Below the pieces are notes generated by a model. That model had not been told where the DNA came from. It was given only the letters and a program-made list of their open reading frames with translations, and did not search any database. A stretch of DNA of 64,000 nt from Escherichia coli. GTDB taxonomy: Bacteria; Pseudomonadota; Gammaproteobacteria; Enterobacterales; Enterobacteriaceae. Position numbers and translations under genes: made by a program. Shown piece after piece: positions 3,068 to 25,570 of this stretch. The DNA lies in NCBI RefSeq assembly GCF_016026235.1, contig NZ_CP065613.1; one strand, 5' to 3'. The stretch's first letter is position 1, and every line of letters begins with the position of its first letter.

Positions 3068-4753
3068 TCAGGCTTTATTGTCCACTTTGCCGCGCGCTTC
3101 GTCACGTAATTCTCGTCGCAAAATTTTTCCGACGTTAGATTTCGGTAACTCATCACGAAACTCCACCAGCTTCGGTACTTTGTATCCCGTGAGCTGACGG
3201 CGGCAAAAAGTCACCAGTGACTCTTCGGTAAGCGATGGATCTTTTTTCACTACGAAGATTTTCACCGCTTCACCACTGGAGCCGGAAGGTACGCCAACAG
3301 CCGCGACTTCCTGTACGCCAGGATGCTGCATGACGACATCTTCAATCTCGTTGGGATAGACGTTAAAACCGGAAACCAGAATCATGTCTTTTTTACGATC
3401 GACAATGCGCAGGAATCCTTCTTCATCCATTACCGCGATGTCGCCGGTGTGTAACCAGCCATTTTTGATGATTTCATCGGTAGCATCGGGACGCTGCCAG
3501 TAACCCAGCATCACCTGCGGTCCTTTGACACAAAGCTCACCCGGTTGACCTGGTGGTACTTCATTATCATCATCATCCACCAGTTTGGCTTCCGTCGACG
3601 GCACCGGCAAACCGATGCTACCACTATGATAATCAATATCATATGGGTTAACGCTGACCAGCGGCGCACACTCGGTAAGGCCATAGCCTTCCAGCAGATA
3701 CTGTCCTGTCAGTTTCACCCAACGCTCTGCCACCACTTGCTGCACTGGCATCCCTCCGCCTGCGGAAAGATGCAGACTGGAGAAATCCAGCTGCTGGAAC
3801 TCTTTATTGTTCAGCAACGCATTGAACAAGGTGTTAACGCCCGTGATAGCGGTAAACGGATATTTCGCTAACTCTTTTACCAACCCTGGAATATCGCGCG
3901 GGTTAGTGATAAGCAGGTTCTGCCCACCCAGTTCGATAAACAGCAGGCAGTTAATGGTCAGGGCAAAAATGTGATACAGCGGCAGCGCCGTCACCACCAG
4001 CTCTTTGCCCGGATGCAACAGCGGACCATAGGTCGCGTTAACCTGTTCCAGGTTCGCCAGCATATTGCGGTGAGTCAGCATCGCGCCTTTCGCCACACCA
4101 GTGGTGCCGCCGGTGTATTGCAGAAAAGCTAAATCTTCCGGCACCAGTTCGGGTTTGACGTACTGCATCCGGTAGCCGTTATGCAGTGCGCTACGAAATG
4201 AAATGGCATCTGGCAGATGGTATTTCGGCACCAAACGCTTGATGTATTTAACAACGAAATTGACTACCGTGCCTTTTGCCGTAGATAGCTGATCGCCCAT
4301 ACGGGTCAGAATTACGTGCTGAACGGCGGTTTTATCAACCACTTTTTCCAGTGTGTGAGCAAAGTTAGACACGATAACAATCGCCGATGCGCCGCTATCG
4401 TTAAGCTGATGCTCAAGCTCACGCGGGGTATACAACGGGTTAACGTTTACGACGATCATCCCGGCACGCAAAATGCCAAACAGCGCCACCGGATATTGCA
4501 ATAAATTAGGCATCATCAACGCAACGCGATCGCCTTTCTTCAGCCCCAACCCTTGTTGCAAATAAGCGGCAAACGCGCGACTGCGTTCTTCCAGCTTGCG
4601 GAAGGTCATCACCTCCCCCATATTCACAAACGCAGGCTGATCGGCGTAGCGCGCGACCGACTGCTCAAACATATCTACCAGAGATTGATAACGGTCAGGG
4701 TTGATCTCCGTCGGAACGTCCGCGGGATAACGGTTAAGCCAAACCTTCTTCAA
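3068..4753 (-). CDS. fadD: long-chain fatty acid-CoA ligase FadD
   Basis: Protein recognised as FadD; annotated N-terminus MKKVWLNRY corresponds to a TTG start 22 codons inside the 583-aa track ORF. Confidence 0.9.
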
Positions 4754-4957
4754 TTCTTCACCTCTAAAATGCGTGTTCGTCGTCATCGCAACCCCAAATG
4801 ATATACATGCCGTTAACATAATATTAACTCATCATACCAGCTTGATAATTACCCAACGAAAAGGTTGCGAAGCGCGTCACTATTTATTTTTATCTTTACC
4901 GTAAGAATGCAGAAACAGCGGACCAGCCGCTGTTTCTTTTTCTTTAAAAACAAGCAA

Positions 4958-5539
4958 TTATTCAGTTACAACTGTTTGTACTCTCGCGGGGCCGGGATTA
5001 TACCAGCCCCATCCGCCGTAGCCATAGGGCCAGCCACGACCGCCATAAAACCATGGATCAATCGGCTGAGGCGGCATAATCACCTGCTGGGTTAAATGCC
5101 AACGTTTGTAACCCGTTACTTGCATCACCATAAATTTATAGGGCGTATTGCCGATTTTGCCGTCAACCGCACCAGTGATTGGCCCGACTACCGTAACCAG
5201 TTGTCCACGGAAATCCACCGGGTCCAGAAAACCGTTCACATCGGCATAAATGCGACCGCGAGAAGGTTCTCCCAGCGTCGGTCTGGCTCCGCTGTCCAGC
5301 GGTACGGTAGCAATTTCCAGGCGGGTTTTCCCTTGCTGGTTTTGTACCGCAACCACTTTGCCACCAAAGCGTGCCTCCTGACCAACGTACAGCTGCGGCG
5401 CACTCATCACCCGAACTAAATCTTGTTGCGGCGTGGGACTGCTGCCTTTAATGGCGTCCGGCACAGTGACACAACCGCTCAGCATTAGCGCAAACGTACC
5501 TGCCAGTATGCCTTTGATAACATTCTTTTGAACCGCCAT
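4958..5539 (-). CDS. yeaY: Slp-family outer membrane lipoprotein YeaY
   Basis: 193-aa ORF with lipoprotein signal (LSGC) and Gly/Trp/Tyr-rich C-terminus. Confidence 0.85.
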
Positions 5540-21605: not shown

Positions 21606-22064
21606 ATGACAATCACGGACCTGGTACTGATTCTTTTCATCGCCGCACTCCTGGCCTTCGCGATCTACGATCAGTTCATCATGCCCCGCCGTAACGGCCC
21701 CACCCTGCTGGCAATTCCTTTGCTCCGGCGTGGTCGCATCGATAGCGTTATCTTCGTCGGATTGATTGTCATTCTTATCTATAACAACGTCACGAATCAT
21801 GGTGCGTTAATAACGACATGGTTATTAAGCGCACTGGCTCTGATGGGTTTTTATATATTCTGGATCCGCGTTCCGAAGATCATCTTTAAACAAAAAGGTT
21901 TTTTCTTCGCCAATGTCTGGATTGAATATAGCCGAATCAAAGCGATGAACTTGTCGGAAGATGGCGTGTTGGTGATGCAATTAGAACAGCGTCGGCTGTT
22001 AATCCGCGTTCGAAATATCGACGATCTGGAAAAAATTTATAAGCTTCTCGTATCAACTCAATAA
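21606..22064 (+). CDS. yobD: UPF0266 inner membrane protein YobD
   Basis: 152-aa ORF recognised as YobD. Confidence 0.85.
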
Positions 22065-22264
22065 TTTATGAATTTAGCCAAAGCTATGTTTAGTGTATTT
22101 TTAATAATCAGACATAGCTTAGGCTATATTATCTCTTCCCTTATTTGTTATTTATATTAACGTTTCATTGATATATAAATCTAAATGAAAATCGTTATCA
22201 ATAAAGCAATGAAATAATATATTCCAACAGTTGTTTTATATTCTCAAAATATGTTAAGGTTGCG

Positions 22265-23865: not shown

Positions 23866-23957
23866 GACAACTCCGGCAGGATACTAAAGGCCGCAAGTGT
23901 AACGCGAATCACGCGGCGGGCAAATATCCGAACGCCAGGAGCGAAGATAAAGCATAG

Positions 23958-23985
23958 TAAAAAGCCTCGCATTCGACGAGGCTTT
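23958..23985 (-). terminator. rho-independent terminator downstream of cspC
   Basis: gcctcgtcgaatgcgaggc hairpin followed by T-run on minus strand. Confidence 0.55.
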
Positions 23986-24030
23986 ATAGCGAGATTGAAG
24001 CGTATTCACACTTCAGATCAGTGGATTCGA

Positions 24031-24240
24031 TCAGATAGCTGTTACGTTAACAGCTGCCGGACCTTTCTGGCCGTCCTGAATTTCGAACTCAACGTTCTGA
24101 CCTTCAGCCAGAGTTTTGAAGCCATTACCCTGGATAGCGGAGAAGTGTACGAACACGTCTTTGCTGCCATCAGCCGGAGTAATGAAGCCAAAACCTTTAG
24201 ACTCGTTGAACCACTTAACCTGACCTTTAATCTTTGCCAT
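24031..24240 (-). CDS. cspC: cold-shock-like protein CspC
   Basis: 69-aa [23 protein letters not shown]... Confidence 0.95.
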
Positions 24241-24252
24241 TTGAAAAATTCC

Positions 24253-24396
24253 TTAGATTGTTTTCTTCGCCCGCAGGCATAACATAGATAAAACTGACAC
24301 ATTACTGCATGAGGCACCAATATAAGGCTCGGCAGAGAAGCGGTATTCAACGTCAACGTGTTTACTCAGGACTTCTTTACTGAAAATGCCACACAT
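24253..24396 (-). CDS. yobF: small protein YobF
   Basis: Manual translation of minus strand gives 47 aa [47 protein letters not shown]; below the track cutoff. Confidence 0.85.
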
Positions 24397-25064
24397 AAAC
24401 AGAACTGTACCTCGTTTAACCCGAAATCTGTTATCACATACAACGTTAATTATGGCAAGCCATTTTTAAACATGTCTCGATCAGACGCACAAATCTCGAT
24501 ACGTCTTCCACTTTTTTTGCACACTTATGCAACGGAATACGCGCTGATATATCATTGTGCTTAACCTTGCCAGTTCAGGCAGATACTTAAACTGGCGTAT
24601 TTTCTAACATAGTTCAATAAGTTCAGTTGTTCCAGGCCAGTGGGAGAAGTTATTACATAGTGCGTGCAATATCACATTTTTTGCTATGCAATGAATAAAA
24701 AGTTATATCACTTTTTCTCATAAAACAGTCAGTTAACGGCTATCAATTACCCTAAAGAGAAGTCAATCCCCAAAGGGATTGAAAATTTAAAATAAGAAAA
24801 ATTGATGAATGAGCAAAAAATCAAGAAAGAAACGTTTCGCTAATAAATAATACCACGCTTAATCACAAATCCGATGTAAACATCCTAATAAATTAATGAG
24901 GAAAATATCTTTTTCTGATATCCCGTTACGCAAATAAATAATATGATAATTATTTGAAGTCAGACCAGAGTTTTAATTTGAAGCAGTTGCACCATGGCAG
25001 TGCGTATAATCAGGATGAATTGAGTAACCCTTCAACGACGGGGTTACTCAAGATTGAGGAAGGA

Positions 25065-25352
25065 TTATCGTTCGGCGACCAGACGAATAATATCTTCGTC
25101 TTCAACCGATTTTTGACTCTCAACGGTCTTTTTATCTGCTTTCTCAGGTTCGTTTGCTTCGCACAAACGACGTAACAGTGCATTTTGACGTTTTTGCTGA
25201 TCCAGCAACGCCTCAAGCAGTTCAATCTGTTCGTTAGTCCGTGAACTGGCACGATTGATAAAAAACCACAAGATGAGCCCGATAAGAAGAACCACCACCG
25301 ATACAACCAAAGACGCAATGTTCATCACGCCTGAATTTACAACTTCGTTCAT
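25065..25352 (-). CDS. yebO: small membrane protein YebO
   Basis: 95-aa ORF recognised as YebO. Confidence 0.85.
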   Translation of the reverse strand: MNEVVNSGVMNIASLVVSVVVLLIGLILWFFINRASSRTNEQIELLEALLDQQKRQNALLRRLCEANEPEKADKKTVESQKSVEDEDIIRLVAER

Positions 25353-25426: not shown

Positions 25427-25570
25427 TCACCACGGGATAAACTGGTTAATGGCACAAATTCCGCTGAAAAATTGTACATCCTGATCGCACATCATGTTGA
25501 ATACCTGCGCCCAAAGCAGCAAGCAAGCCAACACCACGACAACCAGAACGACCCATCGAAACTTTTTCAC
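25427..25570 (-). CDS. mgrB: PhoQ-inhibiting small membrane protein MgrB
   Basis: Manual translation of minus strand gives 47 aa [47 protein letters not shown]; start codon here is GTG. Confidence 0.85.

Follow-up and report, generated by a model that had tools for sequence, protein, structure and literature searches.

In the window, by which is meant the whole stretch of 64,000 nucleotides of Escherichia coli DNA analysed here, the genes mgrB (25427-25570), yebO (25065-25352), yobF (24253-24396) and cspC (24031-24240) all lie on the minus strand, and a gap of 668 bp (24397-25064) separates yebO from yobF. According to the list of open reading frames (ORFs), none longer than 28 aa lies wholly inside the gap, and no annotated feature was found there in the RefSeq entry of K-12 or among the 20 matches listed. 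In G+C content the gap (35.0%) lies well below the window (50.5%), and it reaches a minimum of 28% at 24650-24949; a value as low as 35.0% was obtained for 0.19% of all 668-bp segments of the window, each of which overlapped 24397-25064. Eight A/T homopolymer runs of at least 5 nt and nine A/T-only runs of at least 8 nt were counted in the gap, where 2.3 and 1.6, respectively, were expected from the window. The tract is thus the 668-bp stretch lowest in G+C, and its preliminary description as A/T-rich and poor in ORFs was accurate. A second A/T-rich trough (30% G+C) was observed about 2 kb away, at 21950-22250 in the yobD-mntP gap.

The gap sequence was present at a coverage of at least 80% in 5410 of 5426 complete E. 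coli genomes, usually in one copy each. In total, 5435 places were found in 5423 genomes (median, 1 per genome; one place plasmid-borne), the coverage was below 80% in 13 of the 5423 matching genomes, and 3 genomes gave no match. A mobile or repeated element was ruled out as the identity of the tract by its single copy per genome. K-12 coordinates were obtained by adding 1,883,195 to window positions below 24814 and 1,883,196 to those above; the gap copy differs from that of K-12 by 7 substitutions and 1 single-base indel, none of them in the core promoter described below.

For comparison within the Enterobacteriaceae, a scan for YebO gave 80 loci, and the 76 usable yebO-yobF gaps, that of the window included, were compared. 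The gap was about 590-745 bp long (441 bp in one locus) in Escherichia, Salmonella, Citrobacter, Klebsiella, Raoultella and some Enterobacter (short class), and about 1455-1580 bp long in Lelliottia, Kosakonia, Leclercia, Buttiauxella, Cedecea, Phytobacter and other Enterobacter (long class). The long-class gaps (30 of the 76 loci) contain a gene for a metallo-beta-lactamase (MBL)-fold protein of 331-335 aa (Lactamase_B_2, Pfam E 8e-42), which begins about 17-20 nt after yebO (for example, 4308-5303 in locus L008 and 4310-5317 in locus L028, with 28 other loci) and is absent from the yebO-yobF gap of Escherichia, Salmonella, Citrobacter and Klebsiella. The tract is read here, with a probability of about 0.85, as the intergenic control region between the co-directional operons mgrB-yebO and yobF-cspC.

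The mgrB-yebO 3' end and the adjoining spacer

In the literature, mgrB-yebO is treated as one polycistronic RNA. A perfect 11-bp stem (25051-25041 paired with 25030-25020) with a 10-nt loop starts 13 nt past the TAA of yebO, forming a terminator-type stem-loop for the mgrB-yebO transcript at 25020-25051 on the minus strand. The hairpin pointed out earlier behind the yebO stop is therefore real, and the 9-bp arms given for it (25022-25030 and 25041-25049) are the core of the 11-bp stem. The 66-nt context of the hairpin had a folding energy of -16.9 kcal/mol (z = -3.1), which was matched by one shuffle out of 200; mononucleotide shuffles served as the folding controls here and below. In the available part of a published Term-seq data set, the 'primary' 3' end of yebO is given as K-12 1908212 and 1908213, one for each growth condition, and coordinate mapping places it at 25016/25017 of the window, 3-4 nt beyond the stem; the next entry in that part lies inside yobF (K-12 1907479). 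Among the 46 short-class loci, the 60 nt next to the yebO stop folded far better than its shuffles in 78% (mean z -3.3), with hairpin sequences unrelated between genera, and the mean z was -1.2 where a gene directly follows yebO. Because of the mapped 3' end and the recurrent hairpins behind yebO in relatives, the hairpin is the end of the mgrB-yebO transcript.

As in intrinsic terminators, a G+C-containing stem-loop lies right after the stop codon and the RNA ends 3-4 nt past the stem; unlike them, the hairpin has no U-tract, its 3' flank being AUUCAUCC (AUUCAUCCUG), and it was not reported by the terminator pattern scan. Since the U-tract is missing, the stem-loop may not be a classical intrinsic terminator but a structure that protects the 3' end; the end itself may have been produced by exonucleases that trimmed the RNA as far as the hairpin, possibly after termination by Rho. 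Inside yebO, the Term-seq entries available for this locus also record a bicyclomycin-sensitive (Rho-dependent) 3' end region (K-12 1908371, window about 25175, minus strand), so that part of mgrB-yebO transcription would stop ahead of the hairpin.

The hairpin is followed by an unconserved A/T-rich spacer at 24842-25019, the position occupied by the MBL-fold gene in other genera. The mean identity of this spacer was 0.11-0.47 per 20-nt bin relative to the 45 other short-class loci, and the yebO-proximal 220 bp or so were unconserved over the 76 loci. It is possible but unlikely that the tract derives from the MBL-fold gene as a pseudogene or deletion scar, its A/T-richness being a product of unconstrained decay. 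The gene does lengthen the gap between yebO and yobF in 30 of 76 loci, the unconserved segment of E. coli sits exactly at its position, and short-class loci of the Enterobacter cloacae complex still carry 60-130 nt from its 3' end (blastn E down to 4e-19), from which it follows that the gene was deleted at least once. However, an MBL pseudogene in the E. coli gap was rejected, as neither tblastn with two MBL proteins nor a profile HMM of the 30 gave a match in the gaps of E. coli, Salmonella and Citrobacter. Moreover, in the approximately 450 bp closest to yobF the homology is with the sequence that follows the MBL gene, not with the gene itself, so that at most about 220 bp could be scar.

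Core promoter, leader and reported occupancy of yobF-cspC

At the yobF-proximal end of the tract, about 94 bp were 87-98% identical in all genera and almost invariant among the 76 Enterobacteriaceae loci. The near-invariant sequence of the published promoter (87-95% identity across 46 loci) lies at 24424-24493 on the minus strand and carries the invariant TTTGTGCG..GATCGAGACA. A promoter of the form TTGCCA-17-GATAAC with a TGn extended -10 was read from the sequence at 24458-24430 and is listed as the yobF-cspC promoter in PMC3946193, and a pattern scan gave a second, overlapping one, GAGACA-18-CATAAT, at 24478-24449. Just upstream of the -35 element, the A/T-rich, UP-like TTTAAAAAT (24462-24470) consists of columns that are invariant in an alignment of 40 genera. 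The promoter and the upstream UP-like element that the preliminary description had supposed to lie in the tract were thus both located, the former within its last 90 bp or so. For E. coli K-12 the promoters yobFp1 and yobFp2 are catalogued, and the catalogued yobF-cspC region is the same locus with the same elements, differing in nothing.

The transcription start of yobF was placed at 1905641 in older K-12 numbering (1907617 in current numbering) in a sigma-S ChIP-seq study and at K-12 1907615-1907618 in a tagRNA-seq study. Both correspond to 24420-24423 of the window, 7-10 nt past GATAAC and 24-27 nt from the ATG, and they define a 5' UTR of 24-27 nt (24397-24423, minus strand) with the Shine-Dalgarno sequence GAGG at 24410-24413. 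A yobF::sfgfp fusion in Salmonella begins at the equivalent of 24444, 48 nt before the ATG (PMC10965054); its 5' end fits the GAGACA-18-CATAAT promoter, and 24424-24444 would then be the first 21 nt of an alternative 48-nt leader starting at 24444. Against the reading of the tract as a control region, a single-copy reporter with a region upstream of yobF has been described as silent in both low- and high-Mg medium, and therefore the promoter fragment or the conditions matter.

The preliminary description had also proposed a long structured leader or regulatory RNA, and this part did not hold: the leader of 24-27 nt folded worse than its shuffles (z +1.2) and is unstructured, and neither excess fold energy nor covariation was detected in the tract. 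It is highly improbable that most of the tract is a long structured leader of the cold-shock type, a thermosensor like that of cspA, ahead of yobF-cspC. The full-length match of RF01766 (cspA thermoregulator) at 23956-24416, with 135.7 bits against a gathering score of 78, enters the tract by only 20 nt and is gone (E <= 10) when 24241-25070 is searched alone; the score is reached because the model includes coding sequence and a terminator, here those of cspC, and RF01766-type matches on csp paralogues should not count as thermosensors. A long leader would agree with a conserved promoter-like element about 204 nt upstream of yobF, with Salmonella coordinates that are compatible with a 5' UTR of at least 181 nt (PMC10965054), and with the heat induction of YobF, which has been reported as post-transcriptional, but the starts in E. 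coli lie 24-27 nt from the yobF ATG and conservation is at its lowest immediately past the putative distal start. The mean fold z over the 76 loci was -0.69 and -0.70 for the two segments of a leader of about 204 nt, against -0.78 for an upstream control, and +0.56 for the core; in RNAalifold on 40 sequences, representing genera, the covariation term was -0.02 and there was no compensatory pair.

Like cspA, yobF-cspC has an A/T-rich, UP-like block above the -35 element and a TGn extended -10 ahead of a cold-shock-domain gene, and the whole cspC mRNA scores over the gathering score of RF01766. Unlike cspA, with its thermosensing leader of 159 nt, it has only 24-27 nt before the first ORF, the stretch from the start to cspC is occupied by the yobF ORF, and no match to the cspA leader alone was obtained: the alignment of that leader with the yobF region was no better than with shuffles (local z -0.2, global z 1.8). 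A cspA-like thermosensor was rejected on the grounds of this alignment and of the coding-sequence-driven Rfam match. Expression of cspC takes place at 37 °C rather than being induced by cold. Within yobF, 44 nt upstream of the cspC ATG, the available Term-seq entries include an abundant RNA 3' end (K-12 1907479, window 24284, minus strand), classed there as not Rho-dependent, which may mark a point of attenuation or processing between the two genes.

Several proteins have been reported at the tract. An in vivo sigma-S ChIP-seq peak spans 24328-24565, genomic SELEX peaks were assigned to the sigma-S holoenzyme near 24549 and to the sigma-N holoenzyme near 24433, the latter with reported binding and repression, and several sigma-70 holoenzyme peaks were placed in 'the 670 bp spacer' (PMC3946193). 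No convincing GG-N10-GC (sigma-54) element was found around the sigma-N peak, and the sigma-N claim is that of the paper alone. The yebO-yobF spacer also carries an 'HNS' flag in a genomic-SELEX table (PMC3946193), and its composition is of the H-NS type (35% against 50.5% G+C, minimum 28%, A-tracts). The small RNAs OxyS and CyaR are reported to pair with or repress yobF mRNA at the short leader. The preliminary description had set against its own proposal transcript maps with only a short leader together with an absence of regulatory occupancy; the leader is indeed short, whereas occupancy by sigma-70, sigma-S, sigma-N and H-NS has been reported. In a sigma-S in vitro transcription study, the sigma-S-preferring signal in the gap belongs to probes bearing the label '-f' (forward), and a signal of this kind was also obtained for a CFT073 ORF antisense to cspC. 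If the probes are strand-specific, an antisense transcript would run across cspC-yobF (window 24031-25064, plus strand); the forward-probe signal could be a cDNA artefact of abundant sense mRNA.

Conserved islands upstream of the core promoter

Between the spacer and the core, four small islands of conservation were found in the comparison of the 76 Enterobacteriaceae loci, their distances from yobF being similar and, for islands III and IV, fixed. Island I consists of the palindrome AGCGAAACGTTTC at 24829-24841, with the core CGAAACGTTT at 24830-24839. The exact core was present in 69 of the 76 loci amid variable flanks; in 68 of these its upstream distance to the yobF ATG was 382-477 nt, and in the remaining one (L021) 584 nt; in the E. 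coli window it lies 443 nt upstream and occurs a single time in the 64 kb. The palindrome is centred on CG with AAAC/GTTT half-site cores (AGCGAAAC/GTTTC), and the versions in Enterobacter (ATCGAAACGTTTTGCT) are more symmetric. Island I was compared with the rbsD-proximal palindrome of K-12, TCAGCGAAACGTTTCGCTGA, which we take to be the RbsR operator, and 13 contiguous nt were identical, with 16 of 20 positions matching overall. The identity covers AGCGAAACGTTTC, with the central CG and the full left half-site in it, whereas the right half-site diverges (GTTTCTTTC against GTTTCGCTGA) with only GTTTC matching, and Island I, unlike the rbsD operator, does not lie over a promoter or start site. 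The AAACGTTT core is common to the sites of other LacI-family proteins, namely PurR, Cra and GalR. To judge from its sequence, Island I looks like a LacI-family operator and is a candidate for the RbsR type. No data on the binding of RbsR or another protein to this site were found in the literature examined. Upstream of rbsD in K-12 (locus L082, 745-760), a second AAAACGTTTCG motif was noticed about 75 bp further upstream of the 20-bp palindrome, which shows that the core recurs readily in regions controlled by the LacI family.

Island II (TTATTCATTGCATAGCAAAAAATGTGATATT, 24667-24699) is moderately conserved (identity 0.53-0.57) and contains one half, TGTGA, of a CRP-like site. Island III (24600-24636, minus strand) has the promoter-like form CTGGA-N17-(C)TATGTT-AGAAAA, with the -10-like TATGTT at 24606-24611 and a predicted start near 24599; in the cross-family comparison the form is CTGGA-N17-(C)TATGGT-AAAAAA. 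In both size classes, most of the 76 loci have a match to CTATG[GT]T whose first base lies 214-221 nt upstream of the yobF ATG; in a few long-class loci the distance is 207-211 nt, and about 19 loci gave no exact match. Directly behind the conserved element, conservation falls to its lowest level in the region, as would be expected of a promoter. It has C at -13 and an A-rich discriminator, which are features associated with sigma-S promoters, and it lies about 60 bp from the reported sigma-S holoenzyme SELEX peak; for E. coli it is a putative promoter. For Salmonella, PMC10965054 cites 1893683 as the start; measured from there, transposon insertions described as lying in the 5' UTR are 172 and 181 nt downstream, and an insertion in cspC is 546 nt downstream. 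At face value, the leader would have to be 181-390 nt long, which matches Island III, and a long leader would then be made under some conditions at least. One transposed digit would reconcile all these numbers with the short leader, and the start is ambiguous, being 204 or 48 nt upstream of yobF depending on whether one coordinate is misprinted. Island IV (GCATAAGTGTGCA, or GCATAAnTGTGCA in the cross-family comparison) is at 24518-24530, and all matches to it lay 132-134 nt ahead of the yobF ATG. On the pattern of conservation, the islands are most likely protein-binding sites together with an auxiliary upstream promoter.

It is extremely improbable that an unannotated small RNA or small protein gene is hidden in the tract, for although there are two strong hairpins (24763-24782, z -2.9, and 24569-24596, z -4.2), several ORFs of 20-28 codons and a sigma-S-dependent in vitro transcript signal from an intergenic probe set, both hairpins are specific to E. 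coli and not kept even in E. albertii, the only ATG-initiated ORF (24555-24481) lacks its start codon in other Escherichia, no Rfam family matches the tract, the available Term-seq entries for two conditions contain no 3' end between K-12 1907479 and 1908212, the current RefSeq entry of K-12 has no annotation there, and the conserved islands (10-35 nt) are too short for a gene. A small RNA gene was rejected on the Rfam result, the unconserved hairpins and the lack of an internal 3' end in those Term-seq entries, and a small protein gene on the length of the longest contained ORF (28 aa) and on starts and frames that are not kept in other Escherichia. The first of the two hairpins, an 8-bp stem on the minus strand that appeared terminator-like in the pattern scan, was not kept even in other Escherichia, and the Rfam match to CRISPR-DR25 at the same position is a chance one (E 0.1-0.3). 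A 68-codon ORF with a GTG start (24358-24564, plus strand) runs antisense to the start of yobF and the core promoter; its first 25 or so residues are kept in distant genera (for example, in L008 and L028), after which the frame breaks, and the similarity is therefore that of conserved promoter DNA and not of a gene.

Proposed control of yobF-cspC

On the reading of the tract as an intergenic control region, the mgrB-yebO transcript ends at the stem-loop 13 nt past the yebO stop, where its 3' end has been mapped. The next 180-220 bp, fast-evolving, very A/T-rich and a reported target of H-NS, may serve as a spacer or as silencing-prone DNA. The four islands would then provide binding sites for proteins and an auxiliary promoter, as their conservation suggests, and the core of about 94 bp, with its UP-like element and two overlapping sigma-70/sigma-S promoters, directs transcription in E. 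coli from a start 24-27 nt before the ATG. The short, unstructured leader carries the ribosome-binding site, at which OxyS and CyaR are reported to act. Because this leader is short and unstructured, control would operate through DNA (promoter choice and occupancy) and through the short leader rather than through a long folded RNA. The promoter, the starts, the binding of holoenzymes and H-NS, the targeting by small RNAs and the yebO 3' end are already published. The upstream islands appear not to have been described in the literature examined and constitute a modest lead, not a discovery; an upstream architecture of about 470 bp, kept throughout the family at similar distances from yobF and containing a sequence close to the core of the rbsD operator, offers a concrete and cheap hypothesis for the regulation of cspC.

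A more speculative and distinctly unlikely proposal is that the RbsR-type operator about 440-460 bp upstream and the sigma-S-style promoter about 204 nt upstream form a second tier of control in the Enterobacteriaceae. If this were the case, the distal promoter would give an mRNA with a long leader in stationary phase, and the sensing of ribose or nucleotides would be linked directly to the RNA chaperone CspC. In Salmonella, rbsR and cspC mutants were obtained from one screen for growth on succinate, and RbsR raises RpoS by an unknown post-transcriptional route (PMC10965054); a second tier, if real, could bear on the joint recovery of these mutants.

CspC is a global RNA chaperone, and loss of cspC has been selected repeatedly, in ageing E. 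coli colonies and in Salmonella on succinate, which gives the control region physiological weight. In E. coli strain 361 (locus L093, NZ_CM132949.1, 2788-3569), an IS1A element abuts the last 69 bp or so of the tract, and the DNA that should follow, yobF and cspC included, is missing as far as a truncated CSS-motif gene; cspC has here been lost naturally, through IS1, which agrees with the reports of such loss as adaptive.
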